Assembly (NCBI GenBank): GCA_947628855.1
Contig: CANRBM010000002.1
Location: forward strand, 4,884 to 68,883
Source: an uncultured Clostridia bacterium
Lineage (GTDB): Bacteria > Bacillota > Clostridia > Christensenellales > CAG-917
DNA: 64,000 bases
Reading direction: 5' to 3'
The position numbers and the translations under genes were made by a program. Under the pieces are notes generated by a model. It ran no database searches and had not been told where the DNA came from. It saw only the letters and a program-made list of their open reading frames with translations. Position 1 is the first letter of the stretch, and every line of letters starts with the position of its first letter. Below, piece after piece: positions 34,449 through 55,382 of this stretch.

Positions 34449-34835
34449 TCAATCGTCGATCAATTTGGTGATATTGAGCGCAGGAATGATTATAGGCGCC
34501 ATTCCAGGTTGTGCAGTTAATGAAGTGATTTGACTTCTGATAAAGGGGAATATAATCGCAGCACCGTTTATTTTTGCCATATCGTCTCGACTTTCCTCAT
34601 CTTGAACTGCTTGTGTAAATACGAAAACTCCGATAGCTATCACAGACAAAGATATGTCGTCTTTTGCAATATCGACGGTCAACTGCACTTCGTATGCATC
34701 GTCGACATGTCGCAACTTGCGCGAAACGTCGATCTTCAGTTCGCCGCCTGCAACAACAGCCTCTCTCTTAAATGTGATTGATGGAAAGTACAGATTTTTC
34801 AACTGCATTTCCGCTCTCATATCATTGATGTCCAT
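34449..34835 (-). CDS. SecB-like chaperone (third gene of a TAC module)
   Basis: ORF 34449..34904, start trimmed to ATG 34835 behind GAGGAGGA (5-nt spacing), 10 nt after the upstream stop. By-eye alignment to E. coli SecB: MQLKNLYFPSITFKRE vs FQIQRIYTKDISFEAP; DDAYEVQLTV vs DDVYEVVLRV; IIFPFIRSQITSLTAQPGMAPIIIPALNITKL vs [32 protein letters not shown]. Confidence 0.75.
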   Translation of the reverse strand: MDINDMRAEMQLKNLYFPSITFKREAVVAGGELKIDVSRKLRHVDDAYEVQLTVDIAKDDISLSVIAIGVFVFTQAVQDEESRDDMAKINGAAIIFPFIRSQITSLTAQPGMAPIIIPALNITKLIDD

Positions 34836-34845
34836 AAATTCCTCC

Positions 34846-35403
34846 TCAAGCCGCAAAGGCGAATTTTTTTGGTTTATCCCAACCTGTTTCGCCAAAATCG
34901 ACATCCAAAGTCAAAACAGGCGGTTGCTCCGACAATACCATGTCCAGCAACTTCTTTTCAATCTTGACATACTCTTCACTTTTGAATGAATCGCGATGGT
35001 TCTTGAGTTTTTCCAAAAGATATGTCGCGCCCTTCTGTTGCAATTCTTTCAATATATCCGAAAAAGCCTTGCTCGGGATATAGCCGTCGCAATATCTTTC
35101 AAATGTGTGGGGACCCATGCCCAAGATCTTGGACAAATTTCTCTTGCTTGCGACATGTTTATATGTTTTTGCCAATACTAGCACATCACTATAAGATATA
35201 AGATGTTTTTTTGCTCTGTATGCGTCATAAATTGCAAACAAATTGAAATCGTGCAACTCTCCCATATGCACAAGTTCCCCACACTCGTTGCAATGTGCAT
35301 ATTTTTGGATGCAGGTCAACTTTTCGCCTTTCCAAACGATCTCTTCTTCTTTTTCCTCTATTGTTACATCGACATTTTTTAGACAATACACGCAGAATTC
35401 CAT
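34846..35403 (-). CDS. mqsA: MqsA-like antitoxin (zinc-binding N-domain plus XRE HTH) with a C-terminal extension
   Basis: Start at ATG 35403, 9 nt after GAGAGG. Zinc ligands C4/C7/C38/C41 (CVYC...CNEC). HTH SKRNLSKILGMGPHTFERYCDGYIPS vs E. coli MqsA TQKEAAEIFGGGVNAFSRYEKGNAQP. About 70 extra residues follow the HTH, ending VLTLDVDFGETGWDKPKKFAFAA. Confidence 0.75.
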   Translation of the reverse strand: MEFCVYCLKNVDVTIEEKEEEIVWKGEKLTCIQKYAHCNECGELVHMGELHDFNLFAIYDAYRAKKHLISYSDVLVLAKTYKHVASKRNLSKILGMGPHTFERYCDGYIPSKAFSDILKELQQKGATYLLEKLKNHRDSFKSEEYVKIEKKLLDMVLSEQPPVLTLDVDFGETGWDKPKKFAFAA

Positions 35404-35419
35404 TGTTTTCACCTCTCAA

Positions 35420-36648: not shown

Positions 36649-38274
36649 TCATTTGATGATGTACACCTTTGTCTGATGCTTTTTGAGCTCGGTTTGCACG
36701 ACGCCGTCCGTTGTGAGCTCCTCGCCGCTCCATTGCTCCGTGAGGTGATAGCTCTTTTGCTTTTTGAGGGCTACATATTTGTCGTTGAGCAGGGAAGTAA
36801 GATCGAATTTCGCTTTCTTGTTGCCGTTTGATTTGTTGAACAGCGCAAGCGCCACGCTGCCGTCCGCGAGCGGCTTGGCAAGCACATCCACTTTACCTTT
36901 CTTTACGCGTTTTGCCTGCTTGCACAGCGGGTCTTGATTTATTGCGATGAGGTTCTTGTTTGTGACGATCTGCTTGACTTGCTCGCTCATAGTGCGCAGG
37001 TCGTTGCCAAGAATGAGAGGGGAGTCCATCATGCACCACAGCGAGAAGTGGGACACGTTTTGATCGTAGGTGAGGTCTCCGTTGCCGACTTCGAGCATAT
37101 CGGGGTCGTTGTAGTGCCCGACGCTCGAATATTTGTACAGCTTGACGTTGTGCTCGTATATTATCTTGATCCAGAACCACCACGGGCGGATGTCGGGGGT
37201 AGTGCGCCACAGGTTGCCCGCCTTCGCGCCCCAATTGTACGGCTTGCCCCAGCCCCACTCGCAAATGGAGAATACGATTGGCTTGACGGGCGTGCCTTTT
37301 TCTTCCGCGGCTATCTTAGCGCCTTCCTTGAGGGCGAGTCCCATGCGGCGATACTGATACATCTCGCTGTCCGCCTTAGAGGCGATAGGATTGTATATTT
37401 CGATCTTGTTTTTGCCCGCCTTGAGGGTGACGATCGTCTGGAAGCGCGCCGTGACGTTGTATTTCTTTTGAGACGGAAATTCTATTTCGTACTCCTTGTC
37501 GTCGTTGACCTTGACGACGGCGTATTTCTCGTATTGTCCGTGCTTTTTGATGTTGAGGGTGACGACGTACTCGCCGTTCTCGGGGGCGTCTATGTTTTCA
37601 TAGGTTATCCTGCCGAGGTTCTTGTCCAGCCCGCCCACATAGCAACCCGTAGGCAGTTTTTTGTCCGTCATATATCGCGCGAGCCCGCTGAGGCGCGCGT
37701 TCTGTACGGAGTATTCCGTCGCCTTGCCGTCGAAGCGCGACACGCTTATGCTGTACACGAGCGGCGCGTATATGGGCAGATAGATGTGGTGGCAGAAGTC
37801 ATACTTGAAATATTCAATGCCCCATCTCGCAAGTTGCAGCGCGTCCTGTCTCTCGCGCCCGAGGGAAGCGGGCAGATCCTCGCAGGTGAGAGTGCCGTTT
37901 GAGGTGTACGCGCCAAGTTTGAGCCCGAGAGCGTTCACCTTTTGCACAAGCGCGGGGATGCCGCTCGGGAAGGTCTCGTAGTCGCCGACAAGATTGCCCG
38001 CTATATCGCGCTTGTTCGACTGCCAATTGTCGTCCATATTGACGTATGTATATCCCGCCTTATCCAGCCCCTGCGCCTTCAAAGCCTCCGCCATCTCGAG
38101 CACCATTTTCTCGTTTATGTGGTTGTGGAAGGTGTTCCAGCTCGACCAGCCCATAGGCGGAGTCTTTGCCACGCCGTTTTCGTGGTCCTCGAACTCGGGC
38201 TTGACGCTCGTGGACTTGCTCTTGATGAAGAGTTGTTTCAAATAGCACATAGGGCACATGCCGTTTCGTTTCAT
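36649..38274 (-). CDS. Alpha-galactosidase, glycoside hydrolase family 27, with a ~140-aa insertion in the catalytic barrel
   Basis: 541 aa. PPMGWSSWN, YVNMDDNW, nucleophile FKYDFC, CEWG...WRTTPDI. C-terminal beta-sandwich. No signal peptide. Confidence 0.85.
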   Translation of the reverse strand: MKRNGMCPMCYLKQLFIKSKSTSVKPEFEDHENGVAKTPPMGWSSWNTFHNHINEKMVLEMAEALKAQGLDKAGYTYVNMDDNWQSNKRDIAGNLVGDYETFPSGIPALVQKVNALGLKLGAYTSNGTLTCEDLPASLGRERQDALQLARWGIEYFKYDFCHHIYLPIYAPLVYSISVSRFDGKATEYSVQNARLSGLARYMTDKKLPTGCYVGGLDKNLGRITYENIDAPENGEYVVTLNIKKHGQYEKYAVVKVNDDKEYEIEFPSQKKYNVTARFQTIVTLKAGKNKIEIYNPIASKADSEMYQYRRMGLALKEGAKIAAEEKGTPVKPIVFSICEWGWGKPYNWGAKAGNLWRTTPDIRPWWFWIKIIYEHNVKLYKYSSVGHYNDPDMLEVGNGDLTYDQNVSHFSLWCMMDSPLILGNDLRTMSEQVKQIVTNKNLIAINQDPLCKQAKRVKKGKVDVLAKPLADGSVALALFNKSNGNKKAKFDLTSLLNDKYVALKKQKSYHLTEQWSGEELTTDGVVQTELKKHQTKVYIIK

Positions 38275-38437
38275 AATCGACCTCGCAAAGCTTTAATACT
38301 TTTTAATTATATCAACTTAAAAAATTTCCGTCAATACGCAAATGCGCCTATCAGCCGAGAAAAGCCGCCGAAAATCGCCGCCGCGTCGGAAAATTTCCGT
38401 GAAATCGGCGAAAAAGCAAAGATATTTTTCAACTTGC

Positions 38438-38466
38438 TTGTCAAACGCGCCTTAAAGATGTATAAT
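38438..38466 (+). promoter_or_regulatory. Promoter of tRNA-Arg
   Basis: TTGTCA (38438-38443), 17 nt, TATAAT (38461-38466). The tRNA 5' end lies 12 nt downstream. Confidence 0.6.
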
Positions 38467-38477
38467 CACATAGCAAT

Positions 38478-38554
38478 GTTTCTGTAGCTCAGCAGGATAG
38501 AGCGTCCGCCTCCTAAGCGGAAGGTCGTGGGTTCGAATCCCGCCAGGAACGCCA
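38478..38554 (+). tRNA. tRNA-Arg (anticodon CCT), CCA encoded
   Basis: Hand-folded cloverleaf. Acceptor GTTTCTG/CAGGAAC. D arm GCTC-AGCAGGATA-GAGC. Anticodon arm TCCGC-CTCCTAA-GCGGA. Variable AGGTC. T arm GTGGG-TTCGAAT-CCCGC. Discriminator G plus CCA. Confidence 0.9.
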
Positions 38555-38555
38555 G

Positions 38556-38596
38556 TCCTTCTCAAACTTGAACCAAGTTTGAGAAGGATTTTCTTT
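38556..38596 (+). terminator. Intrinsic terminator directly after tRNA-Arg
   Basis: 14-bp stem TCCTTCTCAAACTT / AAGTTTGAGAAGGA with loop GAACC, followed by TTTTCTTT. Confidence 0.8.
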
Positions 38597-38602
38597 CCTT
38601 AT

Positions 38603-38743
38603 CGGGATTCGAACCTGCGCAATTTTAGGTGTAAAATTGCGCGCACCGTTTCACGGTGCCACGACCTCGGTCGTGCTGCACGCTTCGCTCCCGAGAGCAA
38701 GCTCTCACGCTCCGCTGTAAGACAAATCCCGCCAGGAACGCCA
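38603..38743. other. tRNA-Arg-derived inverted fragment pair ending in a 19-nt direct duplicate of the tRNA 3' end
   Basis: CGGGATTCGAACC...CCACGACC (reverse copy of the T-arm region, interrupted by hairpins GCGCAATTTTA-GGTG-TAAAATTGCGC and CACCG-TTTCA-CGGTG), then TC, then GGTCGTG...AATCCCGCCAGGAACGCCA. The last 19 nt (38725-38743) are identical to tRNA nt 38536-38554. Confidence 0.7.
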
Positions 38744-38769
38744 AAACCCTCGCGAGGCGAGGGTTTTTT
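38743..38769. terminator. Second terminator after the duplicated tRNA 3' end
   Basis: AAAA-CCCTCG-CGAGG-CGAGGG-TTTTTT. Flanking A- and T-runs make it bidirectional. Confidence 0.7.
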
Positions 38770-38973
38770 GCGCAATCGTGTGCCGATCCGCCTGCGGCGA
38801 AGTCTTGCACGGCGGTGGATTCGTCCCGCTGTCGGCTGCGCCGCCACCGCCACCGTAAGGGCTGAGAAGTGACGGGAAACCTTCACTTCACAGGATCTAT
38901 GAGTTTGCGGCATGATTTGATTTTGTAATGCGGAGTTGTGTACGGCAAAGTTGCTGCGCGCGGCGGGGAAGGA

Positions 38974-39030
38974 GAAATCTAAAGAAATCTTTAGAATTGG
39001 GGCGGAAATCTAAAACTTTCTTTAGAATTG
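38974..39030. promoter_or_regulatory. Two tandem 26-nt operator-like imperfect palindromes
   Basis: GAAATCTAAA-GAAATC-TTTAGAATTG (38974-38999) and GAAATCTAAA-ACTTTC-TTTAGAATTG (39005-39030). The 10-nt arms are identical between copies and only the 6-nt spacers differ. Period 31 nt. They end 20 nt upstream of a -35 box. Confidence 0.5.
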
Positions 39031-39050
39031 AAAGTTTTTGCGTAAAACGC

Positions 39051-39079
39051 TTGATATTTGTTCAATCGTGCAATATTAT
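39051..39079 (+). promoter_or_regulatory. Sigma-70-type promoter of a short transcription unit
   Basis: TTGATA (39051-39056), 17 nt, TATTAT (39074-39079). Confidence 0.5.
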
Positions 39080-39148
39080 GGCAAATGGTAGCGATATATA
39101 CGTGTTTTTCCGTATACAAAGGAAGGCACGGCGCACAAAAAAAGGAGA

Positions 39149-39286
39149 ATGATGATAAAGATAGCGGACAAAGTGATGGACAAGGTGACTGCTCCTTCAT
39201 ACACGGGGGGGGGGTATTGTTGTCGCATATGCCGCACAGGCGACTCTCCAAGTAAAATCCGAACAAAACAGATACAAACGCGATGA
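39149..39286 (+). CDS. Hypothetical 45-codon ORF (Cys-rich) containing a G10 tract; coding status uncertain
   Basis: Below the ORF-track length cutoff. AAAGGAGA directly precedes ATGATG. Translation: MMIKIADKVMDKVTAPSYTGGGYCCRICRTGDSPSKIRTKQIQTR. The unit is bracketed by the promoter at 39051 and the terminator at 39288. Confidence 0.25.
   Translation: MMIKIADKVMDKVTAPSYTGGGYCCRICRTGDSPSKIRTKQIQTR
39205..39214 (+). repeat. Homopolymeric G10 tract
   Basis: Ten consecutive G (39205-39214) encode the GGG of the small ORF. G9 or G11 would switch to other open frames ending at 39299 or 39255. Confidence 0.95.
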
Positions 39287-39287
39287 G

Positions 39288-39312
39288 ATAGAGGGATAGA
39301 CCCTCTATTTTT
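39288..39312 (+). terminator. Intrinsic terminator of the short unit
   Basis: ATAGAGGG-ATAGA-CCCTCTAT followed by TTTT. Confidence 0.7.
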
Positions 39313-39317
39313 CGTTG

Positions 39318-39395
39318 TACCCCACAAAATCACTACGTAATTTTGCGGGGACCCCGAACCAATACCCCACAAAAATACTTTTTGCGGGGACCCCG
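39318..39395 (+). repeat. Two tandem IMR module-H hairpins
   Basis: TACCCCACAAAATCACTACGTAATTTTGCGGGGACCCCG (39318-39356) and TACCCCACAAAAATACTTTTTGCGGGGACCCCG (39363-39395). Confidence 0.85.
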
Positions 39396-39409
39396 AAGCA
39401 GCTCGGACA

Positions 39410-39681
39410 GGGGGATTCCTCGACTACGCTCGGAATGACATCGGGGACACCGTGGACGCTTGGAATGACAGTGTATCAAATGTCATGTTGAGTGGAGCGC
39501 AGCGGAGTCGAAACATCCCATAGTGCAGAGGAAGTGCCTCTTCAAGGGGGATTCCTCGACAAGCTCGGAATGACAATGGGTACTTCGAAACCGCTCGGAA
39601 TGACAGTGTATCAAATGTCATGTTGAGCGGAGCGCAGCGGAGTCGAAACATCCCCTAGTGCATAGGGTGACGAAGTGAGAC
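39410..39681 (+). repeat. Tandem duplication (2 x 136 bp) of IMR module-E composites
   Basis: Each unit reads GGGGGATTCCTCGAC..GCTCGGAATGACA..GCT(T/C)GGAATGACAGTGTATCAAATGTCATGTTGAG(T/C)GGAGCGCAGCGGAGTCGAAACATCCC. Unit starts are at 39410 and 39546. Confidence 0.85.
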
Positions 39682-39854
39682 AATCCCCTCAGTCTGCAAA
39701 GCAGACAGCTCCCCTTGCTAAGGGTAGCCACAAACGGAGAAAGCGCGCGCGTATGTGCGTATATAAATAAAAAACGTAGATAGAAACAAAATAAAAACAA
39801 TATAAAAACAAAATTTCAACGAAGTGTGCGCGATGAGCGCGCAGGGAGGAGAAT

Positions 39855-42800
39855 ATGGCAAGGACAAACAAGTTGAGCAAGATTTTTGTGATTTTGCTGT
39901 TTGTGGTTGTGGCGGCGACGCTGACATTTGCATTTGTGAATGTTCCGATTGGGACAGCAAATGCGGATGAGCCGCTTGTGCTTGAGGGTCAAACGGCAGA
40001 TTATATTGTTACGGCAGATGAAAATCTCCAAAAAAACTATGATGTGACGACCAACACATATACAGCTCCAAAAGGTATGGATTCTGTGATAGTGCTTAAA
40101 GTTCTTGCCCCTACAAGTCTTGGTATTCTTAAATTTAAGTTTGTCCACGGTAGTCTAGCAAGTGGTTACGGTTTGGATGTTTATTTTTCACATAATGGTG
40201 ACGACAGTTTTGAAATAAACGACGGCGATGAATATTTGCCTCATATAGCAGAAATCCATGCTCCAGGATATGAATTGGTTGAACCTGAGCCCATGGATAA
40301 TCTCACATATGAAAATGATATAATAACCATAAATCAACTTTACCCTGGTGATGTAATTAAGATAAAATTTCATAATGCTAAGAAGGGCTCCCCAACGATT
40401 TCCGGATTGAAGATGAACGAGCAAGAATATAGTGTGACAGCAAAGATAGAAGGCGAAGCTCACGGAACTGTTTCAATAGGGGACGATGTCACAAGCGCAG
40501 ACAAAGACAGCGTTTCAGCGAATATTAAAGAAGGGCATACAGCGACATTTACGGTGAAACCCGATGACGATTACTACGCATTTTGGCAAGATTCAACAGG
40601 AAAAGTCGTCGGTTGTGAAAATTCTTTCACAACTGATATGATTTTTGCAGAAACAAATTATATTGTAAGATTTGAGAAATATGTGAGCGCGGGTTCGGAC
40701 GGACAAGCAAAAATAACATACGACAGTACTCTCGACGAAACAGCGGATTTCGGTTGGAAAAAGAGCGACACAGAAGGTCGCTATGAATTGACGGATATAA
40801 AACATTTTGCTACAGGTAATAATGTGCATGCGAGTGCTCCCGGCATACTCACTCTTACGCTCACGTTTGACGGGGAAAAGGTAGTTTCTTTTGATTATCT
40901 TTTGGAACGCGCTATGCAACAAACGAGCGGAGAAATAATTGAATATCCGGTACAATTGCTCCGTCTGTATTTTATCGTAGACGGAGAAGGTGTAACAACA
41001 GATTCGTTAAAAGCAGAGCCCACTGGTGAAGAGGAGTTTTGGAGTGAGCCTTATAACTATAAATTTGAAAAGGGTAGTACAGGATTAAAAGAGACCGCAG
41101 CCGTTACAGATGAACAGGCGGGAACAGGAGCGACTACCTCAATAGAAGCAATGATAAAGGGGGAGGGGCATCATAAGGTCGAATTTGTTATTGTCAGCAT
41201 GTTAACGACCGGCATCCCGTTTTATAAAGATGTGACCAAATGCTATGTTGAAAATATACAAGTCAAAGACCCTACACCGCATACATTTACACTTGATTAT
41301 GATGATAACTTGGGCAATATAATCGTAACTGGGGCAAAAAAAGGTGAGGGCAATTCTTGGACGGGATATGACGGTTTCCCCATTACGTTTGAGGCAAGCA
41401 CAACAGAGGTTGAAAGCTCCCTTGACAAAAAAACGCAAGTTCCCACTCATTTTATCAATTGGACGGTTGGTGACAGTCAACCCACCGATACAACATTGAA
41501 TTTGATGTTCAAAGACGGAAAGTTGACATATGGCGATAAGGAGTTGACGGCAAATGAGGTGAAGGCGTTGTTCCAGGAGGAAACGATAAAGCCGACAGCT
41601 TTCCGCCAAATTTCAAAAGAGACATCGGACACGCAACAGATCACAGACGGCGATGAAGTCAAACTTAATATCAATGAAGCGGCGGAGACTCAGCTTCGCC
41701 TCATCACCGCGGGCTATGGCAAGGAAAATGAAGAGATCGTGTTTAAAGTCAACGGTGCAAACACGTCTTTGCAAACAGTCAAACGTAACGACTCTCTTGG
41801 AGAGTTGGGCGATCTTATGACGGAAGAAATTTTGTCAGAGTTCAACGACGAAGTGCAAGATTTGAAATGGTGGGTGCAACCCAATTTGGGCAAACAGCTT
41901 GTGTTGGAAGTTGCTTACACTTGCGATGGTTATTTTGGCGAGAGCGTTTTAACGATGTATCTCACCTATACCGCAGACGCGAAAGATCTCGGCTTGTCCA
42001 ACAATTCCCTCAACAATGTGTTCACTTCCGACAGCGAAGATGGAGCATATATCACAACAAGCAATCCAAAGGGGGAAGGCGATGAGCTTTGGAGCGCTAC
42101 AAGTGAATGGGAAGGCGACAACGGCTCTATTGTATTTGAAAACAATTTGCACAATATTAACAATCTGGAGCAGTACAGCCCCGGCATAACTTCGGGACAA
42201 GACAGAGACAAATTTTGGTATTACTCATATGTTAGAATCGGCATCAGCCAAAATGGCGGCGCAAAGCGCAAAGGCGTTTTGATGTTTGACATTCGACTTG
42301 ACATAACAGGAGGCAACGGCGACCGAAAAGGCGCTGTCGTGGTCGAGAGAAGAGATCATACGGCAACTAATGGTCCGGAAAGATTTGAAGGTACTGATGT
42401 GGATTACACCCCTACCACTGGTCTAAGTTATAAAGATGGTACTTTTAATAGAAGTTGCATCACATCGGTGTTGGAATATACAAACAAAACGCAAATTTGG
42501 GGGATGAACAATCCGTATGTCACGGATTTGGGCGACGGTTGGTATCGTTGCGCGTTCCCCACGGTGCGCGAGTGCGATTACCTCAGTGAAGACGACAGTT
42601 ACACTCATGATACTTTGCAATATTTCATTTCTTTCGGATTTTCGGGTGACGTATCTGCGCGTTATGCGATACGCAATATGACATTCCGCAACGGCACGGA
42701 CGCAGAATTCAAATTTAATGCGAACGATCCACAAAACAACGGCAATGTCACGGCAAAAGTGGGCGATTCGTCCATTACAAGCGGTCAGACAGTCGCTTTC

Positions 42801-45800: not shown

Positions 45801-48629
45801 ACGCTCGAAGGCTGGGACAAGCCCATCACCTTCACAGTCAAAGCGACAAGCAATAAGGACGCGGGACAAGCGCACTTCACCGTCACGGGCACGGAAAACT
45901 ACACAGGCACGTCGAAGCAAGGCGATTTCACGATAGAGCCCGCAAAGGTCGATATCCAAGTCAATTCGCTAAGCTCCGCGCAGGGCGATGAACTCAGTAC
46001 GGACTATGGATATACTTTCCTCAACAGCACAAAATTCTTTGGCAACGATAATGCGACATTCGACCAAAAGATCGCAGGCAAATATTCTACCAACGCAAAG
46101 AAAGATCAGATAAGCGATCAATACAAGATCACGCTTGACATCAAGGACGCTCAAGCAGCTTTGACAAACTACACGATCACGGTCAAAGAAGGCGTTTACA
46201 CCGTCACAGACTCCATCTTCGCGGGCGTCACGTTTGCGGCAGGCACCGTCACCTACGACGGCAGCAAGCATACGCTCACCGCGCAAGGAACGGAAAAGAT
46301 CAAGGGTACACCTAAGATCGAGTATAAGTATCAAAAAGGCGATAGCACCGTGGACAACGCGTGGCAAGATATCCCCGACGGCGGATTCACGGACGCGGGC
46401 AAGTACAGCATCAGAGTCACGATAACCGTCGATGACCATGAGAGCAAATATCAAGAAACAAGGCTGCTCACCATCGAGCCGAAAAATATCGAGGGCGCGA
46501 CCGTCACGGTGGGCGGCGAGTACACCTACACGGGCAAGGCGATAACGGTTGATAAAGCGAATATCACCGTCAAACTTGACGCGTGGAGTTTGCCGATCGA
46601 TTTCGACATCGACGCGGAAGGCTATGCGGACAACATCAACGCCACTACCGATAAGCAGGCAACCGTCACGATCACGGGCAAAGGCAACTACACAGGCACG
46701 GCGACGGGCAACTTTGACATCGCAAGGAAGAACATTTCGGGCGGCACGTTGACTGTCACGGGCACTTACACCTACAACGGCAATGCGCAAACGCCTCAAG
46801 GCGATGAGCTCTCCGTCACGTTGCAAGGCTTTGATAATGTCTCATTCAAGGTCAAGGAAGAGGGCGGATATGAGAACAACACCAACGCGACGACGTCCGC
46901 AAGCAAGGCTAAGGTCACCGTCGAGGGCACAGGCAACTTCGTGGGCGAACTTAGCGCGCAATTCGACATACAGCAAGCGAAGATAGACAGCGTAGAGGTG
47001 CAAAATCCGGAAACATACATCTACAACAAGACGCCCATCGAGCCGACGCTGGTGGTCAAGAGCGGAACACTTACGCTTGACAAGGACGATTATGACATCG
47101 AATACACGACTGCCGAGAAAGAGCATACCAACGCGGGCACGGTGACATTCACCGTCAAGGCGAAAGCGAACAGCAACTTCACAGGCGAGGTGACGGGCAA
47201 GAGCTTTGTGATAAACAAGAAGCAGATAACCGTCAAGCTGTTGAAGCAGACAAGCGTGTATACGGGCGTCGCGCCCACTGTCTCCTCCGAACAGGGCATT
47301 GGCTGGGAGGTCGATGGAGACGCAATATGCGAGGGAGACGACCTCAACATAGAGCTGCGCGCGGAGGGACTTACCGCGGCGGCAAAGACGTACGTCATAG
47401 ATCCGAAATATAGCAATCCGAACTACGAAGTGAAGTGGGCTCCCGAAACGGCTGAGTTGGAAATAACTCCCGCTACGATAACCGTCACGGTGAAGCCGGC
47501 GAGCTCCACTTATGGCGACGCGGCGGCAAAACTCGAGATTGAAGTACAGGGTATTTGCTCAAGCGACAGCACGCTCAACATCAACGATTATGTCACGCTT
47601 TCTTGTGAAGTCAATGAAAAGACGGGCTACGGCACATACGATATCACCTGCACGAAGAAGAGCGATCCGGAAAACTACACCATCAACATTGTCAACAACG
47701 CCAAATACACTGTCAACAAGAAGGATGTCACGGTGACTATAAACGATCAAAACGCGACCTACAATTTTGAAGGCAAATATGATTTGGATCAGACGAAGTG
47801 GGAGCTTGCAGATGGACAGAGTCTTGCAAACGGCGAAACCAAGAATGCCCTCAAAGTCAAGCTTGCTCGCGTGGCCATCACGAGCGCCGGCGAATATGCG
47901 ATAACCGGCGCGAGCGACAATCCAAACTACAATGTGACGTTTGAAGGCGCATGGGCGCAAGAAGATGGCAACAAGGGCAAAGCGGGCGTATACACGGTTG
48001 CCAAGAAGACCTTGGTCCATGACGGAGAGTATGTCATCTTCATGCTTGCGATAGGCGATGATGTGGACGTTGAAGAAAAGAGATCCGTCAAGTTTGTTGG
48101 CGAGGATATAGAGCTCAGCGCGCGTATCTATGTGATGGAAGGTTCAGAACTCAGTGAGATCACAGGCTATGAACTCAGCGAAAGCACTCTGACCGCCTCC
48201 GGCACATACACGATCGTCGTCACTATAAACGATGTAAACTACGAAGGCAGCAGGACGTTCACGGTAGAGGTGCTCACGGAAGAAGGCTATTCGCAAGCGC
48301 TCAGCGACGCGCTCAAGGAGCTTGAGGAGAAAGTCGGAGACCTAACTGCGGACGCGCTTACATCAAGCGAGGAGCATTTCGAAATCATAAAGCAGGTTAA
48401 GGCAATACTGAACGCGCTGTCCGAAGAGGACAAGCAAGCGGGAGCGGAGCAACTTGCGAAATACGAAGAGCTTGTTGAGACGTGGGATGCCGCGGCTGAT
48501 ATAAGCGACGACGTCATTGAGACGGCGAAGAATATAGCGGACATGCCGATCAAGTGGCTGTTCGCGATGGCAGAGATGAGCGTACTGCTTGCGGCGTTGT
48601 ACGTAGTAGGAAAAGGAGGATTGATGTAA
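39855..48629 (+). CDS. 2924-aa cell-surface repeat protein (adhesin-like), function unknown
   Basis: GGGAGGAG RBS. Sec signal (KIFVILLFVVVAATLTFAFVNVPIGTANA/DE). C-terminal hydrophobic anchor (WLFAMAEMSVLLAALYVVGKGG). Two InlB-B-repeat-like modules (DDYYAFWQDSTGKVV; DGQKFYGWEIIDKD). A ~550-aa beta-helix-like centre opens with GHFYATLDEAVKAAKELGTADIVIV. About 13 tandem 80-90-aa Ig-like units of two alternating kinds (YTYNGQxxTP...NAGTAxVTVxGTGNFTG...FDI, and YGD-type TYGDTPENIAFEV...NYEVNV...YTV) span roughly nt 44950-48010. I saw no LPXTG or SLH motif. Confidence 0.85.
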   Translation: MARTNKLSKIFVILLFVVVAATLTFAFVNVPIGTANADEPLVLEGQTADYIVTADENLQKNYDVTTNTYTAPKGMDSVIVLKVLAPTSLGILKFKFVHGSLASGYGLDVYFSHNGDDSFEINDGDEYLPHIAEIHAPGYELVEPEPMDNLTYENDIITINQLYPGDVIKIKFHNAKKGSPTISGLKMNEQEYSVTAKIEGEAHGTVSIGDDVTSADKDSVSANIKEGHTATFTVKPDDDYYAFWQDSTGKVVGCENSFTTDMIFAETNYIVRFEKYVSAGSDGQAKITYDSTLDETADFGWKKSDTEGRYELTDIKHFATGNNVHASAPGILTLTLTFDGEKVVSFDYLLERAMQQTSGEIIEYPVQLLRLYFIVDGEGVTTDSLKAEPTGEEEFWSEPYNYKFEKGSTGLKETAAVTDEQAGTGATTSIEAMIKGEGHHKVEFVIVSMLTTGIPFYKDVTKCYVENIQVKDPTPHTFTLDYDDNLGNIIVTGAKKGEGNSWTGYDGFPITFEASTTEVESSLDKKTQVPTHFINWTVGDSQPTDTTLNLMFKDGKLTYGDKELTANEVKALFQEETIKPTAFRQISKETSDTQQITDGDEVKLNINEAAETQLRLITAGYGKENEEIVFKVNGANTSLQTVKRNDSLGELGDLMTEEILSEFNDEVQDLKWWVQPNLGKQLVLEVAYTCDGYFGESVLTMYLTYTADAKDLGLSNNSLNNVFTSDSEDGAYITTSNPKGEGDELWSATSEWEGDNGSIVFENNLHNINNLEQYSPGITSGQDRDKFWYYSYVRIGISQNGGAKRKGVLMFDIRLDITGGNGDRKGAVVVERRDHTATNGPERFEGTDVDYTPTTGLSYKDGTFNRSCITSVLEYTNKTQIWGMNNPYVTDLGDGWYRCAFPTVRECDYLSEDDSYTHDTLQYFISFGFSGDVSARYAIRNMTFRNGTDAEFKFNANDPQNNGNVTAKVGDSSITSGQTVAFGSRVELTATETDGQKFYGWEIIDKDNNSTFYASTSVSGSEYKLSYTVLDPVTVVAWFGNGEAYEARVGGHFYATLDEAVKAAKELGTADIVIVKDKIHLASDLEISAGISLILPFSDEGLYFGSAASNKYKTENRIAWADGDENANKYLTFFIDNTATLTVKGNFFVGGVVNHVGQGYQGHTSGAYAEVINNGHIVIQDKGVMDVYGRVRGTGDIDVQSGDLKQPFLILDFMGGTETLGLFMDGVTPFKRYAMINIECDFTIHYGARLVGHATLYALQEFISLDQAFIGMSDDYGRDTMIMLKDGAYVTATYDPNKVVGGATSTNCTEKIGETTLHFYGGAWFSYMQFTAMGITVPTSGVFFSIPYNYNLQLDVNGKEEGTYETKTDFMIMPGAVVHVCEKAKLILHSNAWIYDGFEQATVANKTYPTASDLENGNYSKSGNLIVDGTLEIQKKFGLNNSTALPDQSNLQPAIFVGLVQTTSNTGKIVIDSQAILTFRPFDGTEGPSGGNYFAYNSTARVWDAAHGCFADLKAGKTYTAVKGKEGNDVTFTLDSIKYTNTKQSETDELTLTLDQEMHGSWMEDHKGHQLDWTPTAEELGSLTRANFCELTRKCSVMGCDHSTSMYLLKDLNVLTAQTFKGEAYTDEQLKEIFLKMIFGEQANTAKGKITIVIGQHDELKNVPVSPYQIEITLTGAGWWLAGSSKYEYARTFTFNIQKYDISEKTGLTVTDIGAKTYTGQQITVSDVDIQFANQKLAKGTDYTLGFGNNVNVKDGGTVTVTGAGNFTGSFELKFKIDPADISGGTLTVQDPNFVYNGQAQTPTRDHLIILNVAGFDNSVITVDIQATDNTNAGTAHVTVEGTGNFTGELSETFDIKKATATVTLTSAAGTYGDTPENIAFEVTDYKVDADKAIIEEAVQITHTATSNSGVGNYAVNVKVGELQNYEVNVKNGNRSQDGWTVQKVYTVNAKSIDGATVSIKEGKTYTYNGQEITPAVGEIEVTLEGWDKPITFTVKATSNKDAGQAHFTVTGTENYTGTSKQGDFTIEPAKVDIQVNSLSSAQGDELSTDYGYTFLNSTKFFGNDNATFDQKIAGKYSTNAKKDQISDQYKITLDIKDAQAALTNYTITVKEGVYTVTDSIFAGVTFAAGTVTYDGSKHTLTAQGTEKIKGTPKIEYKYQKGDSTVDNAWQDIPDGGFTDAGKYSIRVTITVDDHESKYQETRLLTIEPKNIEGATVTVGGEYTYTGKAITVDKANITVKLDAWSLPIDFDIDAEGYADNINATTDKQATVTITGKGNYTGTATGNFDIARKNISGGTLTVTGTYTYNGNAQTPQGDELSVTLQGFDNVSFKVKEEGGYENNTNATTSASKAKVTVEGTGNFVGELSAQFDIQQAKIDSVEVQNPETYIYNKTPIEPTLVVKSGTLTLDKDDYDIEYTTAEKEHTNAGTVTFTVKAKANSNFTGEVTGKSFVINKKQITVKLLKQTSVYTGVAPTVSSEQGIGWEVDGDAICEGDDLNIELRAEGLTAAAKTYVIDPKYSNPNYEVKWAPETAELEITPATITVTVKPASSTYGDAAAKLEIEVQGICSSDSTLNINDYVTLSCEVNEKTGYGTYDITCTKKSDPENYTINIVNNAKYTVNKKDVTVTINDQNATYNFEGKYDLDQTKWELADGQSLANGETKNALKVKLARVAITSAGEYAITGASDNPNYNVTFEGAWAQEDGNKGKAGVYTVAKKTLVHDGEYVIFMLAIGDDVDVEEKRSVKFVGEDIELSARIYVMEGSELSEITGYELSESTLTASGTYTIVVTINDVNYEGSRTFTVEVLTEEGYSQALSDALKELEEKVGDLTADALTSSEEHFEIIKQVKAILNALSEEDKQAGAEQLAKYEELVETWDAAADISDDVIETAKNIADMPIKWLFAMAEMSVLLAALYVVGKGGLM

Positions 48630-49198
48630 TGAAAAAGAGACTCATACTTTTGACGATAGCAGTAATGTTGCTTACGATAGTGACGGTGGCGTTTGTGGGA
48701 TGCGATCCGGAGGAAGAAGTGACGGGGCTGGCGCTAATACAGCAGCAGTATAACGATATAGTCACGGCGAAGGCGATAGTGCAAAGCATCACGATAAAGA
48801 GCGGGGAGATCACGCAGTTCGAGAGCGAAAAGACCTACACCAAGACTGATGACGGGTACACAGTCACGGGGACGGAGAAGAAGTTTAACGGCGTGGACAA
48901 GCTGTTTGACGAGACGCCGATCAACGAGACGGTGCAGAAGGCGGTAGACGCCAAGCCTACGCTCAATTTGAACGAGATGTATTTTGAGGGCGACTATCGT
49001 CTTTCGGAGACGGGGCTCACGGCGAATGTCAAGCAGGCGAACGTCAAGGACGTGTTTGGGGCCACGGGCGAGCTGAAGGCTCCTACGGACAATCTCATGC
49101 TTGAGATGAGCGTATCGGGCGGACACATTTCAAGTGTGCGCATAAGTTACGATTCTGAAGGGAGTCACGTTGTGATAACGCTCACGATGACCTATTGA
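48629..49198 (+). CDS. 189-aa lipoprotein, unknown function
   Basis: ORF 48554..49198, start trimmed to ATG 48629, which overlaps the upstream stop (TAATG). AAAAGGAGGA RBS. Signal MKKRLILLTIAVMLLTIVTVAFVGC. The mature part looks all-beta. Confidence 0.75.
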   Translation: MKKRLILLTIAVMLLTIVTVAFVGCDPEEEVTGLALIQQQYNDIVTAKAIVQSITIKSGEITQFESEKTYTKTDDGYTVTGTEKKFNGVDKLFDETPINETVQKAVDAKPTLNLNEMYFEGDYRLSETGLTANVKQANVKDVFGATGELKAPTDNLMLEMSVSGGHISSVRISYDSEGSHVVITLTMTY

Positions 49199-49229
49199 TA
49201 GGTGGTCGCGGGTAAAAGACAGTAAAAGA

Positions 49230-49268
49230 GACAACAAGGGGACGTTTTTGTGCGCCGCCCTTGTTGTC
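49230..49268 (+). other. 11-bp-stem hairpin between the lipoprotein and ABC genes
   Basis: GACAACAAGGG (49230-49240), 17-nt loop, CCCTTGTTGTC (49258-49268). No T-run follows. Flanked by direct repeats TAAAAGAGACAA / TAAAAAGAGACAA. Confidence 0.5.
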
Positions 49269-49320
49269 GTAAAAAGAGACAATAAAAAGAACAATAAAAT
49301 ATAGGGAAATAAATCAACTT

Positions 49321-50199
49321 ATGGGCAAGAACAGAACAAACAGAAATATCACGGCAGACCTTGGCGTAAAGGCGAACTCCGCCGAGCCGATGACAGACGC
49401 TCAAGCGGCAAGCGGGAATGAAGGGCAAGTGCCCGTCGTAGAGATAAAGGGGCTTTACAAGAAGTACTCCAAGAAGGCGGACTATGCTATAAAGGACGTC
49501 ACGTTCAGCTGTTATGCGGGCGAGATAGTGGGCCTTTTGGGACACAACGGCGCGGGCAAGAGTACAACTCTCAAATGTCTTGAGGGCATGTTGCCGTATG
49601 AAGAGGGCGAGATACGCATAGACGGGCACGACGTCAAAAAAGAGCCTATCGCGGCAAAGGCGCATATGGGATTTGTCACGGACAACCACGCGGTGTTTGT
49701 GAAGATGACGGGCAAGGAGTATCTGTCCTTTATGGCTACCGTATACAAAGTGCCGCAAAATGTGAGGAAGGAGAGGTATGAACAGTTGGAAGAGGTTTTC
49801 CAGCTGGGAGACGCGGTGAACAATCTCATAAGCAGCTATTCTCACGGCATGCGGCAGAAGATATGCATGATGGGTTCGCTTATGCACGAGCCGAGGCTGT
49901 GGATATTGGACGAACCGTTGACAGGCTTAGACCCCCGCACGATGAAGGCGGTGCGCGAATTTATGAAGGAGTACGCGAAGAAAGGGAATTGCATAATCTT
50001 CAGCTCGCATGCTTTAGGCAGCGTGGCGCAGATATGTGACAGAGTGGTGCTCATCCGCCGCGGCTTGCAGGTGGACGCGCTCAACATAAGGCAGATAATG
50101 ACGGAGAATCCCAATTTCGATTTCGAAGGCTACTTCCTTGAGGGCGAACGCCGCGCGGAAGAGGAGACGGAGCATAAGGCGCAGGAAGGTGAGGCATAA
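49321..50199 (+). CDS. ABC transporter ATP-binding protein
   Basis: 292 aa. Walker A GHNGAGKST, signature YSHGMRQK, Walker B LWILDEPLTGLD. The start is uncertain: no clear RBS at 49321, and the first ~35 aa are non-conserved. Confidence 0.85.
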   Translation: MGKNRTNRNITADLGVKANSAEPMTDAQAASGNEGQVPVVEIKGLYKKYSKKADYAIKDVTFSCYAGEIVGLLGHNGAGKSTTLKCLEGMLPYEEGEIRIDGHDVKKEPIAAKAHMGFVTDNHAVFVKMTGKEYLSFMATVYKVPQNVRKERYEQLEEVFQLGDAVNNLISSYSHGMRQKICMMGSLMHEPRLWILDEPLTGLDPRTMKAVREFMKEYAKKGNCIIFSSHALGSVAQICDRVVLIRRGLQVDALNIRQIMTENPNFDFEGYFLEGERRAEEETEHKAQEGEA

Positions 50200-51947
50200 T
50201 GAAGAGATTGGATACCGAGCTTATCGGCGCGTTGCTCAAGAAACAGCGGATAGAGAGCTCGTATAAATATCGTCGCGGAAAATTCGACATAATGGGCTTT
50301 TTGCTCGGGCTTTTGCTTGCGGCGGCGATAATAGCGCTGTTTGTGGTGTTCTTTGGCAAATTCGTAGGAATATACATGCAAGTGAAAGGCGTATTCGGCG
50401 TTGAGGGCGTAGAGGCAAGACCCGCATTCCACTACGATCTGAGGATATACGAACTCATGACGCTCATCTATGCGGTGGTGTTCATCTTTTTGACGATAGG
50501 GGCGATAATGCAGATAAACAGGCAGATATTTGACGCGGACGGAGCAAGGCTTTATGCGGCTATGCCTGTGGATTCAACAAGCCTGTATGTTGCAAAGATG
50601 ATAACGATATATGCGTCCCAGCTTGTCATATCTACGGTCGTAGTGCTGACTGTCAACATCACGGCGGCGATAAACGTAATGAGCAAGGTCGCGCTTGGGT
50701 GGCAATATTGGCTTGTTACGGGCGTGATGTGCTTTTTGCTCCCGTTGTTGACGATAGCAGTTGGGTCTCTGCTCGCGTTGCCCGTCAATGCTGTAAAGCG
50801 GTTTTTGAAGGACAAGTTTTTGTTGAACTTCATATTGGTCACGGCGATAATGGCGGTGGCGTTCTGGCTGTATTCGATAGTGCTGGACGCGGTGAAGCAG
50901 ATGCTGCTCGGAGACGATCTCAAATACTTCTTTGACGAACCCAAGATGACGGTCATCGTAGAGCTTGTGAGCGGGTTATATCCCGTTAAGTGGCTTGTGG
51001 ACCTGATGCTTGCAAAGCTGGATCCGTCCGCATTGCACATTGGACATACGCCGCTCATTGCGGGTGTTGGCATAGCGGGAGTGTTGGCGGCGTGTATCGC
51101 GCTTGCGCTCGTAATGCTGAGGTTCATGTTGCAACGCGCATTGCAATCCCGCAACACGGGCAGCAGCAGTTATTTGAAGAAAGGCGGCAATGTTGAGAGC
51201 GGAAAGTATGGATTTTTCGCTTTGGTGAAGAAGGAATTTTTGCTCATTTTCCGCACTCCGGCGTATATGTTCAGTTATTTGTCCGTAGCGGTAATAATGC
51301 CGCTTATGGTGTATTTTTGCATGGCGGTGGGCGCGTCCATGTTGGAGAGCTTGGTGGGAGTGCAGCTGAATTTGGAGCTTGCGCTCTTCCTCACATTGCT
51401 TTTCGGCGCGCTTACAAACGTATTTTGCGCGACGAACATAAGCCGAGACGGCGAGATGTTCTACTCCGTAAAGGCGTATCCGCTGGGATATAAGTCTGTA
51501 TTTTTCTCCAAAATATTTTTGTGCATGCTTGTTACGACTCTGTCTCAGCTTGCAAACGCGATCGTGCTCATATGCACGTCCAGCGTGAGCTGGTATGGCG
51601 GTTTGTTCGTGTTCATCGTGGGCGCGCTGTTTGGGTTTGTGAACATATGCGTGGCGACGAGATATGATTTCAACCACGCGCACTTCTCGACGGAAGAGGA
51701 CGGCGAGATAAAGGAATCGAGCGGAGTTGTGTCCACGATAATAGTATTCGGCATGGTGACGGCGTTTTTGGTGGGCGGCCTTGAGGTGGTAATGCGCCTT
51801 ATGACGGAGCTTAAAGGGCAAAGTTTGCCGTGGCTCACCTATTTGATAGGCGCGGTCGCTGCGGTGATAGGAGCGGTGCTGGCGTGCCTGTATTTTGTGG
51901 GCAGGTTGGGCAAGAAGTACTATGAGTTTGAAGGAGGGGAGATCTGA
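50199..51947 (+). CDS. 582-aa polytopic ABC-exporter-type permease
   Basis: The ATG overlaps the ATPase stop (TAATG). About 10-12 hydrophobic segments by eye. No recognisable enzymatic motif. Size and topology resemble the Firmicute 'putative ABC exporter' permeases. Confidence 0.7.
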   Translation: MKRLDTELIGALLKKQRIESSYKYRRGKFDIMGFLLGLLLAAAIIALFVVFFGKFVGIYMQVKGVFGVEGVEARPAFHYDLRIYELMTLIYAVVFIFLTIGAIMQINRQIFDADGARLYAAMPVDSTSLYVAKMITIYASQLVISTVVVLTVNITAAINVMSKVALGWQYWLVTGVMCFLLPLLTIAVGSLLALPVNAVKRFLKDKFLLNFILVTAIMAVAFWLYSIVLDAVKQMLLGDDLKYFFDEPKMTVIVELVSGLYPVKWLVDLMLAKLDPSALHIGHTPLIAGVGIAGVLAACIALALVMLRFMLQRALQSRNTGSSSYLKKGGNVESGKYGFFALVKKEFLLIFRTPAYMFSYLSVAVIMPLMVYFCMAVGASMLESLVGVQLNLELALFLTLLFGALTNVFCATNISRDGEMFYSVKAYPLGYKSVFFSKIFLCMLVTTLSQLANAIVLICTSSVSWYGGLFVFIVGALFGFVNICVATRYDFNHAHFSTEEDGEIKESSGVVSTIIVFGMVTAFLVGGLEVVMRLMTELKGQSLPWLTYLIGAVAAVIGAVLACLYFVGRLGKKYYEFEGGEI

Positions 51948-54900
51948 TGAGGAAGTTGGTAATTGCGCTGATAATAGTTTTGCCTATGGTATTTGTGTTG
52001 GTGCTGTTTTCATCCGCCAATCTTGTGAGCATAAGCGTGAAGGTGTCCGTGAACGGCATACAGATATTTGCGGACGGCGATCCACTCCCCGAGGGAGAGG
52101 CGCTATATGTGGATATGGCGGATATGGAGGACCACATGGTGAGGGCGGAGGTCACGCCCGCGAATGCGTTTGAGAAGGGCTTTACGCTTGAGAGCGACAA
52201 TCCCGAGGTGTTGACAATAAATCAAGACGGAGAGATAGGATATATAGAGGCGCTCAGCGAAGGCACGGCAAACGTCACGGCTACAAGCAAAGACAAGGGC
52301 TTTACGGCGAGCGTACCCGTGGTGGTGACGTCCTCTAAGGCATATGGTGTGGATTTTTCGCTTTATGACGGGGATGGAAACGTCGTAAAGATGAATTACA
52401 ACGCCAACAATTCGACATATACCGTTGCGGGCGAAATAGCCGCGGGCACATACACATACAAAGTAGACATAGAGGGAGGAGACTCAAAGGAGTACACGCT
52501 TAAGGCGGAGGACGAGATAAAGGCTATAATAAACGAGGGCGAAGAGAGCATAATGTTTCCTTTCAGCGACGACGCCACGCTAAAGCTCGAAGTGCCGGAC
52601 GCGATCGTAAACGGCATGACGGGGCAGACGATGACGCGCACCATAAAACTTAATGTGGCAAAAGCGCAGTCTGCAAGCGGCATGATCGTGAACGGAGTGG
52701 CGGACGGCAACACGGTGTTGCTTGCCGAGGGCGCGGACAAGGCGACTATGTATGTAGAGTGCGCGGGCGAACCCGAGCTCACGGGCGAGGGCATAGCGAG
52801 CGTGCGCTGTCTTGTGCACGGCACAAGCACACAGCCTCAGGCGATGAGCGCGGACGAAAACACGCGCGCCGCGAGCGGCAATTACCACAAGCTCGAGGTG
52901 ACTTTAAAGGACGGATACAGACAGGGCGAGTTGCATGCCGAGTTGAAAGCGGGAGGCAAGAGCGTGCCTGTAAAACTCAGTTTTGAGAAGTTCGACTTCA
53001 ATCTGCGCGCTCCCATAATGCGCGAGGACGTTGCGGGATTTGGGACGGTAATACTCAAGGACACTGTTACGACGATGTACGCGGTGCCTGCGGTAAGCGT
53101 GCAGGACGTAGAGTATGTGTGGGAAACGGACGCAGCATCGCTTGAGCTCAAGCCCGCACGAAACGGCGCGGAATGCGCTTTTACGGCGAGCGTAGACGGA
53201 GAATACGGCGTGAGCGTGCAAGCAAAGCGAAACGGCGAGAATTTGGGCGCGGCGAAGCAGCTCAACGTGACCGTAACGACAAAAGTGAACAGCGTATGGA
53301 TAAACAATTCGACGGTAGTAGACCTTGCGGAGCGCTATACTGTGGGCGGCAAGAAGTTTGCAGAGAATGGCGAAATTGTGGATAACGACGGTTATGCCAT
53401 AAGGATAATGGTAAGCAAGAAAGGCTCGACCCCGCATCCCAACGACTATGAGGGGATAGAGGTGGTCTCGTCCAATGAAGAAATAGCATCCGTAACAATG
53501 CGGGACGGCATGGCGTGTCTGGATATAAAGGGAGACGGAGCAATTGAGGTCACGGCAAGGTGGAAATACAACGAGGAGTTTGGCGGCAAAGCTACGAGCG
53601 CCATAAAGCTGAATGTAGTGAAGGACGCCGTGGAGGTAAGCAATTATCCCAATCTCCGCACCGCGACGGAAAACGGACATAAGGTTGTGCTCACAAACAA
53701 TATTATGCTGGGTTCGGACAAGAACGGGCAGGAGTTGCCCCTTGAGGAGAGGCAGCAGATCGCCGCAGAGCACAAGTACAATTCCACCTACAACACCGCG
53801 TGGTACAAACAAAAGAACAATTTGGACAAGGCGAAGGTGATGTATGCGCTGGAGTTCAAAGCGGATGTCTACGGCAACGGCAAATATTTGGACGCAGAGT
53901 ATTTCACCAATGCGGTGGATGGGACGGGACGTCCGTTGATATTCACAGGACCATTGTCATTTGTGGGATTCGGCGAAGATCAATATTCCGCGGCGAGAGT
54001 TGCGGCGCAGGACAATTGCGCCTTCCTCATCCGCACGGACGGCGTAAAACTGTATGGAGTCAATTTGCGCGGTTGCAGCGACGACAGCTTGTATGAAGGC
54101 AACAATTATGAGCTGAACCACCTCAACTATGTCGGGACGACGCTTGAGATCAACGCGGATTGCGACATCATCAATTGCAGACTGCAAAACGGGCGCAACG
54201 TCGTGCGCGCATATGGCGGCAACAGAAATGCAGATCTTGATTCGATGAGCTATTATATCAATTCTGTCCCCAATTTCGACATAGCGGACGCGGACCGTAT
54301 AATCGTCAACATCAAGGGCTGCATCCTTACGCAAAGCAGGGAGTTTATCGTAAAACTCGGTGTAAACAGGGCGATAAAGGGCTCTCGCGCAAACACGGCG
54401 CATCCCGAATTGAGGGATGAAAATAACCGTGCATATAAAGAGACTACAAAGAAGATCTCCGTGCAGGATGACGCGGGCAATGTCCATCCAAAGACAGTTG
54501 GAACAAACCAATACGACATCACAAACGATGAATTTTTCTACAAGCGTTATGTTATGACGGACCTCACGCTTGAGGACAGCGTGCTTGAAACGAGCGGACT
54601 GTTCTGCATAGGAGTAGAGAGCAACTTCGCGGGCGAGGTGCTCACGGATGGTTGTTCGAGCAGTCTTTATGCAGGCAAGTTGAAAACGGAAGGCTGGGCG
54701 AACTCCGGCGGAACATCGTTTGCCTCCATGCTAAGACTTGTGGGCGACGTGCGGATGTACGATTGGAAGGATGTGTCGCAAGTGGACAGCAGCACACTCA
54801 TCGAGTCCGGCAACGGTAGCGGAGATCCATTGGGAGGCATACTCAGCTTCAACATCTCAGCGATGTTGCAGGAAGTGGACGGGCAGGACGAATATGCAAA

Positions 54901-55335: not shown

Positions 55336-55382
55336 GTATAAAAGGGGGATAAAATATATATTCAAGTTAGTCCGAGCGATAT

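Follow-up and report, generated by a model that had tools for sequence, protein, structure and literature searches.

A conserved 5' cassette with a poly-G leader ahead of genes for giant surface proteins in uncultured gut Clostridia, a candidate phase-variable attenuator

In a 64,000-nt stretch of the genome of an uncultured Clostridia bacterium (GenBank assembly GCA_947628855.1, contig CANRBM010000002.1, positions 4,884 to 68,883 of the forward strand), a gene for a 2924-aa surface protein is preceded by two palindromic boxes, a promoter, a short open reading frame (ORF) containing a run of ten G residues, and an intrinsic terminator. The whole 64-kb stretch is called the window below, and the cassette is described in its numbering. 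This arrangement is almost certainly a conserved cassette that stands at the 5' ends of a family of genes for giant adhesins, surface proteins with MBG domains, in an uncultured lineage of gut Clostridia. The chance that the cassette works as a phase-variable leader-peptide attenuator, a homopolymer version of a switch known from the pilus operons of Streptococcus gallolyticus, is in our judgement about even. From the anatomy of the cassette, its conservation, its linkage to giant genes in several copies and the geometry of its stop codons, we infer slippage in the G run, translation of the leader, ribosome-dependent anti-termination and binding of a protein to the boxes.

A cassette repeated at the 5' ends of giant genes

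Five loci were compared: the window, three loci designated L001, L002 and L005, and a more distant one, L009. The three came from a scan of species-representative genomes with the box pattern, which returned three matches on three contigs of the uncultured Clostridia bacterium Lapin-001__bin22, a related rabbit-gut Clostridia metagenome-assembled genome. The unit found by BLAST to be repeated runs from ~5 nt before box 1, where homology to all three loci starts, to ~105 nt into the giant gene, in the order boxes, promoter, 5' untranslated region (UTR), ORF with the G run, terminator, A-rich spacer, ribosome-binding site (RBS) and signal peptide (Table 1). DNA identity among these paralogues is very high from box 1 to the signal peptide, whose codons (~39855-39960 in the window) are part of the cassette, and divergence beyond that point is abrupt. 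The cassettes of L001 and L005 lead into different ORFs of more than 2000 aa, and the giant proteins of L001, L005 and the window are alike only in the signal peptide, MAKTN(K/R)(L/M)SKIFV.LLFVVVAA.LTFAFVNVP. The copy in L002 ends at the edge of the locus, before the terminator.

A profile search with the signal peptide yielded one further protein, P0001, on the contig of L009 (GCA_947625145.1). The diverged cassette of this locus was assembled three times (L010 and L011 are further assemblies of the L009 sequence). Wherever downstream DNA is visible, the cassette is joined to the 5' end of a giant gene, as in the window, L001 and L005, or to a remnant of one, as in L009.

Conservation between the window and L009 is a mosaic of the box, the -35 and -10 positions, the ATGATG start, the pure G10, the TGA with the terminator, and the RBS with the signal peptide. 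The RBS and signal-peptide codons are ~95% identical between the two, and the 5' UTR is unalignable. The terminator, TGA included, is 97% identical, against only ~70% for the adjoining ORF. Judged from these alignments, the conserved parts appear to be the functional pieces. Scans of Joint Genome Institute (JGI) metagenomes and of viral sequences with a 22-mer of the ORF and a 29-mer of the terminator gave no matches, so the cassette seems restricted to a narrow lineage.

Table 1. Positions of the cassette elements and the giant gene in the window
Feature	Position	Strand	Remarks
Box 1, GAAATCTAAA-N6-TTTAGAATTG	38974..38999	none	10-6-10 imperfect palindrome; left edge of the conserved cassette
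Box 2	39005..39030	none	arms of box 1, centre variable; ends exactly 20 nt before the -35 hexamer
Sigma-70-type promoter, TTGATA-17-TATTAT	39051..39079	+	10/12 consensus positions; predicted start near 39086
5' UTR	39087..39148	+	hairpin predicted by folding at ~39101-39130; GGAG at 39144-39147; insertions tolerated in L001 and L005
Leader ORF, 45 codons, frame A	39149..39286	+	stop TGA at 39284-39286, 1 nt short of the terminator stem
Predicted RNA hairpin around the tract	39176..39228	+	inner stem pairs CUCCUUC (39192-39198) with G's (39205-39211); outer stem ACAA/UUGU
G10 homopolymer, proposed slipped-strand switch	39205..39214	+	pure in all five distinct copies
Frame B stop, TAA	39253..39255	+	32 nt before the stem; the equivalent stop of L009 is a TAG, at 44 nt
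Intrinsic terminator (attenuator), ATAGAGGG-ATAGA-CCCTCTAT and T run	39288..39312	+	frame C stop TAG (39297-39299) in the loop
Dispersed repeat block, MITE/REP-like	39313..39744	+	in this copy only; absent there in L001, L005 and L009
A-rich spacer and giant-gene RBS, GGGAGGAG	39745..39854	+	RBS at 39844-39851; kept among copies
Giant surface-protein gene, 2924 aa	39855..48629	+	MBG and InlB-B-repeat domains; hydrophobic C-terminus

An earlier note, made from the letters of the window, had listed the boxes, the promoter, the 45-codon ORF, the G10, the terminator and a giant gene ~540 nt further on. All of them lie where it placed them, and conservation of the arrangement as a whole at other loci makes them more than a chance assembly of motifs. 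The note had taken the region for a stand-alone unit; it is instead the upstream part of a cassette tied to the 5' ends of giant genes.

The two boxes, each 26 nt long and starting 31 nt apart in the window, are direct copies, both 5' of the promoter and upstream of the -35 hexamer, centred at ~-68 and ~-99. At up to three mismatches the pattern matches these two sites in the 64 kb and no further copy was found inside the window, where shuffled sequences gave an expectation of 0. The arms GAAATCT and TCTTTAGAATTG are invariant in all eight boxes, and the centre varies. Boxes 1 and 2 are spaced 42 nt apart in L001, L002 and L005 and 31 nt apart in the window; the two spacings differ by 11 nt, one turn of the helix. 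The single box of L009 equals box 1 of the window at 25/26 positions and likewise ends 20 nt before the -35 hexamer, although those 20 bases differ from the window. Such a pattern would be expected of a dimeric protein that binds DNA upstream of the promoter and acts from there, and since sequence, position and helical phasing are all conserved, the boxes are read as putative sites for a trans-acting protein. To this extent the tandem operators of the earlier note stand; a repressor-type operator is not established, the sites lying upstream of the -35. Its expectation that a dedicated regulator is not encoded nearby agrees with the neighbouring genes, among which there is no candidate.

The promoter hexamers and their 17-nt spacing are identical in L001 and L005, and L009 has TTGCAG-17-TATCAT at the aligned position; the promoter is kept in L002 too. 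Between promoter and ORF, at a place equivalent to 39132 to 39145 of the window, L001 and L005 carry insertions of dispersed repeats of 100-250 nt, so the length of the 5' UTR is not critical. A larger block of the same kind, resembling miniature inverted-repeat transposable elements (MITE) or repetitive extragenic palindromic (REP) sequences, lies between terminator and spacer in the window, where the giant ORF starts 543 nt after the terminator. No sense-strand terminator-like or promoter-like site was found within this block, and none of the insertions in any copy carries a sense-strand terminator-like site; the hairpin units of the repeats in the window and L005 are terminator-like on the antisense strand only. 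That parts of the cassette can be moved 100-430 nt apart fits one continuous transcript rather than a compact small RNA. Nor did a scan with the sigma-70 consensus, the only one used, find a sigma-70-like sense promoter in the stretch from the terminator to the start codon of the giant gene in any copy, which is consistent with dependence of the giant gene on the upstream promoter.

The repeat units at the cassette occupy 39318-39400, 39409-39531, 39545-39666 and 39680-39724. They include a hairpin repeat of the form TACCCCACAAAA..TTTTGCGGGGACCCCGAA and a 123-nt tandem pair. Related repeats occur elsewhere in the window (8206-8239, 19838-19877, 19906-19935, 21108-21155 and 55370-55467) and in the other loci (~1283-1386 in L001, ~6473-6725 in L005).

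Leader frame, terminator and the proposed switch

The G10 tract is the sole run of at least eight G or C on either strand of the 64-kb window, and the 2924-aa ORF contains 0 such runs. It starts 126 nt downstream of the -10 hexamer, and thus belongs neither to the promoter spacer nor to the coding sequence of the giant protein. Its length is G10 in the window, L001, L005 and L009 (also in L010 and L011) and G11 in L002; in L001 an extra C follows the G10 directly. A hairpin enclosing the tract is predicted in all five copies, with one compensatory pair seen, and the leader RNA as a whole folds somewhat better than shuffled sequences (z = -2.5). Speculatively, the hairpin could serve as a pause site that lets the ribosome catch up. 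An assembly artefact as the origin of the run was considered and rejected, the run standing in the same conserved context in five loci and several assemblies.

Across the fetched loci there is one other G or C run of eight or more, a G8 at 9362-9369 of L009. It lies within GGCCCTCTAGTGGGGGGGGTATTAGC, ~80 nt upstream of the box, in a context resembling the 3' arm of the terminator followed by the tract, and may be a fragment of another cassette.

The leader ORF would encode MMIKIADKVMDKVTAPSYTGGGYCCRICRTGDSPSKIRTKQIQTR. ATGATG and a purine-rich Shine-Dalgarno (SD) sequence are retained in all copies, and the distance from the ATG to the terminator stem is 139 nt both in the window and in the diverged L009. 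The terminator hairpin, with arms at 39288-39295 and 39301-39308 around a loop of 5 nt, is followed by the tail TTTTTCGTT; a segment of 41 nt containing it folds at -19.1 kcal/mol (z = -5.7 vs shuffles). A simple terminator scanner made no call on the window hairpin, yet lists the nearly identical hairpin of L009. Folds of the window and L009 leaders contained no competing structure using the 5' arm of the terminator, that is, no antiterminator.

What the tract length does to the leader was followed by rebuilding each small ORF with 8 to 13 G. Frame A, which G10 gives in the window and which is also native in L005 and L009, ends in a TGA 1-4 nt before the terminator stem. Frame B (G11 or G8 in the window) ends in a TAA or TAG 32-44 nt before the stem, the predicted OFF stop, and frame C (G9 or G12 in the window) ends in a TAG inside the hairpin loop. 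The three stop positions are alike in 4/4 copies that bear a terminator. Among composition-matched shuffles of the segment after the tract, the same geometry arose in 8% for the window and 5% for L009. The native frame is B in two of the five copies, by the G11 in L002 and the extra C in L001, and a long frame in the other three. This mixture would fit switching and not simple purifying selection on the peptide.

A working model can be built on this geometry. A trans-acting protein that binds the boxes would probably set the activity of the TTGATA/TATTAT promoter across the family. The transcript would carry first the leader of ~45 codons with its G10 and then the strong intrinsic terminator ahead of the giant gene, and slippage during replication would alter the length of the G run and with it the reading frame. 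With G11 or G8, the ribosome would halt 32 nt short of the terminator, the hairpin would form and transcription would end (OFF or low). With G10 or G9, the ribosome would reach a stop 1 nt before the stem or in the loop and mask the 5' arm, and RNA polymerase would then pass through the A-rich spacer into the giant gene (ON). Each paralogue having its own tract, cells could display differing combinations of giant adhesins. A more tentative extension, which we consider possible but rather doubtful, is that the cassette is a portable multi-copy module with two layers, a shared regulator acting conditionally on phased boxes and a poly-G attenuator acting stochastically at each paralogue, with combinatorial variation of adhesins as the result and the poly-G hairpin possibly acting as a polymerase pause. 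To our knowledge, no contingency regulon has been described that combines two such layers and uses a homopolymer-driven attenuator.

Several observations weigh against a switch of this kind. The cassette of L009 is intact, and downstream of it lies only a 78-aa ORF (10001-10237), identical in the three assemblies, that consists of the signal peptide and 45 residues resembling the N-terminus of the window protein and appears to be either a truncated orthologue or a remnant. Because the downstream gene is a remnant, conservation in L009 is not creditable to selection on adhesin expression. All three assemblies of that locus also have G10, and the lone G11, in L002, could be a homopolymer assembly error, which the extra C in L001 cannot be. 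Insertions and deletions in the leader between the window and L009 sum to zero, -2 nt upstream of the tract being balanced by +2 nt downstream. In a test of peptide similarity between the window and L009, post-tract frames A and C both scored above shuffles, a result of conservation at the nucleotide level and of the presence of the terminator in frame C. Substitutions among leader ORF copies are mainly non-synonymous, as expected for a leader whose sequence is unimportant and equally for non-coding DNA. The spacing from GGAG to the start codon is short in the window, 1 nt for the first ATG and 4 nt for the second, which is in the same frame. The A-rich spacer could hold a promoter for another sigma factor, the promoter scan having used the sigma-70 consensus alone. 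Finally, translation in Bacillus subtilis is largely uncoupled from transcription, so ribosome-mediated anti-termination cannot be assumed for every Firmicute. In Streptococcus it does work (PMC3894217).

Alternative explanations and genomic setting

The same anatomy could belong to a conserved leader or attenuator that does not switch stochastically. Read-through would then depend on an antiterminator, such as a NusG paralogue or an RNA-binding protein, or on promoter strength, and the G run would be a hairpin or pause structure. This is unlikely, though it merits real weight: the hairpin formed by the CU-rich segment and the G run is predicted in all copies, L009 included, G10 is found in 4/5 distinct copies and in 3/3 assemblies of L009, and giant genes are in general plausible clients for processive antitermination. 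For the stem, however, 6-7 G would be enough, whereas the copies retain 10-11 in a pure run; covariation in the hairpin amounts to one pair; and no gene for a NusG-like or RNA-binding regulator lies near the window locus. Such an attenuator also leaves unexplained why three-frame stop geometry is shared and why two copies are shifted right at the tract. Somewhat less probable is that the small ORF forms a gene of its own, perhaps itself phase-variable, whose Cys-rich product works together with the giant genes, so that it is inherited along with them, while the giant genes are driven by their own, unrecognised promoter in the A-rich spacer. The layout of promoter, SD, ORF and terminator is complete, CC and SPS motifs are common to the frame-A peptides of the window and L009, and a stop codon abutting a terminator is usual in ordinary genes. 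Against this, peptide identity between the lineages is 40%, changes among close copies are mostly non-synonymous, the ORF is out of frame in 2/5 copies, and the sigma-70 scan gave the giant genes no promoter of their own in any copy. A profile search of 5.8 billion proteins, built from five small-ORF versions, returned nothing, and no homologue has been called as a protein among them.

Two further explanations are very improbable. One is that the ~225-nt transcript from promoter to terminator is a non-coding small RNA, as its discrete ends and the folding of the leader would allow; an Rfam 15 covariance scan of 37500-41000 at E up to 10 gave nothing within 38974-39312, insertions of 100-250 nt are borne inside the transcript in L001 and L005, the SD, the ATGATG and the stop geometry are conserved, and the unit is always in cis to a giant gene. 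Equally remote is a conserved 5' block without regulatory role, which would mainly provide homology for recombination or gene conversion between paralogues or represent the end of a mobile element. The very high identity of the paralogues, its abrupt end past the signal peptide and the boxes as an exact left border of homology speak for this reading, whereas there is no recombinase or transposase nearby, the orientation and position relative to the gene are constant, and conservation in L009 is a mosaic centred on promoter and terminator elements rather than uniform. A recombination tract and a regulatory cassette are not mutually exclusive. The earlier note had left the choice between a small protein, a regulatory leader affecting read-through, and a small RNA. 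The regulatory leader gains from the stop geometry in four copies and from the precedent in Streptococcus (PMC3894217); the other two options are poorly supported, because insertions are tolerated, conservation of the peptide is weak, a frameshift at or next to the tract affects two of five copies and no homologue has been called as a protein.

The window belongs to the ordinary core chromosome and carries dnaG, rpoD, ftsH, cysS, nrdD and luxS. The upstream flanks of the cassette are unrelated from locus to locus: tRNA-Arg and an alpha-galactosidase gene in the window, EF-P in L001 and a radical-SAM gene in L005. Pfam matches on the giant protein are MBG_2, MBG_3 and a weak InlB B-repeat only, chiefly in its C-terminal part, and a search of 5.8 billion proteins for homologues of residues 1-600 (39855-41654) came back empty at E up to 1e-3. 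Exact-protein look-ups of the alpha-galactosidase neighbour and of the small ORF gave no matches, and that of the UDG neighbour matched only on a 1-kb Logan contig. Downstream of the giant gene, 48554-55237 encodes an ABC-transporter ATPase (292 aa), a 582-aa protein without Pfam match and a 1096-aa protein with Big_2/X25 domains, which may form an operon with the adhesin gene.

The tRNA-Arg(CCT) gene (38478-38554) was the sole significant Rfam match in the region scanned. Its last 19 nt, AATCCCGCCAGGAACGCCA, recur in an exact second copy 189 nt downstream, at 38725-38743, followed by a hairpin and a T run. The repeat looks like an att-type duplication or an insertion scar at the 3' end of the tRNA. 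Further upstream, on the minus strand at 34449-35412, two adjacent or overlapping ORFs match an MqsA-type helix-turn-helix antitoxin (188 aa) and SecB (151 aa) in Pfam, and may represent a toxin-antitoxin-chaperone module or what is left of one.

Relation to known switches

In the trp and pyrBI operons of Escherichia coli, translation of a leader peptide extends as far as an intrinsic terminator or into it, and the position of the ribosome decides termination. The cassette resembles them in that a leader of ~45 codons runs to the terminator. It differs in that no antiterminator hairpin was found and that the leader has no run of codons for one amino acid except the Gly codons of the tract; the proposed input is a heritable frameshift and not metabolite supply. 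Poly-G tracts in or next to the promoters of tpr genes in Treponema pallidum and of porA and opc in Neisseria alter the initiation of transcription. There, too, each member of a surface-protein family carries a homopolymer tract, but in the cassette the tract lies 126 nt past the -10, inside an ORF.

Among gut bacteria, G10-12 tracts vary within populations of the commensal Bifidobacterium breve and gate its sortase-pilus genes (PMC9187656). That tract is inside the first structural gene, whose frame it restores, whereas the tract described here is in a separate upstream ORF that abuts a terminator. The cwpV gene of Clostridioides difficile also encodes a large surface protein behind a 5'-leader intrinsic terminator and is under stochastic control at the DNA level (Emerson et al., 2009, PMC2784873). 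In that case the switch is a site-specific inversion between inverted repeats; here the repeated boxes are direct and lie 5' of the promoter, and the homopolymer is proposed as the variable element. Hallmarks of an invertible switch were sought at the locus, and neither inverted repeats flanking the promoter and leader nor a recombinase among the annotated neighbours was found.

The closest likeness is to the pil1 and pil3 pilus operons of S. gallolyticus, in front of which stand a promoter, a leader ORF with GCAGA repeats and a terminator whose stem-loop has -18.7 kcal/mol (Danne et al., 2014, PMC3894217). Slippage of the repeats shifts the frame of the leader. Expression is low when the leader stops 28 nt or more before the hairpin and high when it stops directly upstream of the hairpin or within it, the ribosome then blocking formation of the hairpin. 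Mutation of the ATG, added stops and deletion of the terminator all behave as the model predicts, and the effect depends on translation (PMC3894217). The cassette shares the order of promoter, leader ORF with a slippage-prone repeat, terminator of about -19 kcal/mol and adhesin genes, has one early-stop frame and others that end at or inside the hairpin, and likewise occurs at more than one locus per genome. The repeated unit is a G10 homopolymer in place of (GCAGA)13-22, no GCAGA array being present in 39087-39312; the host is an uncultured Clostridia and the products are single giant MBG-domain proteins in place of sortase pili; and palindromic boxes upstream and an A-rich spacer are added in a cassette whose function is a proposed one. 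The relationship is one of analogous mechanism and not of homology, there being no sequence similarity.

If the proposed switch holds, short upstream ORFs with homopolymers should be neither discarded as assembly noise nor annotated as stand-alone genes, and the ON or OFF state of an adhesin could be read from metagenomes by setting tract length modulo 3 against the distance from stop codon to terminator. Phase switching by leader peptide and terminator would then extend beyond S. gallolyticus, its sole characterised host, and the device would have arisen independently in gut Clostridia with a homopolymer, in a form that can be copied as a cassette across giant adhesins. A kind of mechanism known from one genus would thereby gain an independent, homopolymer-based and multi-copy variant with an added conserved protein-binding layer.

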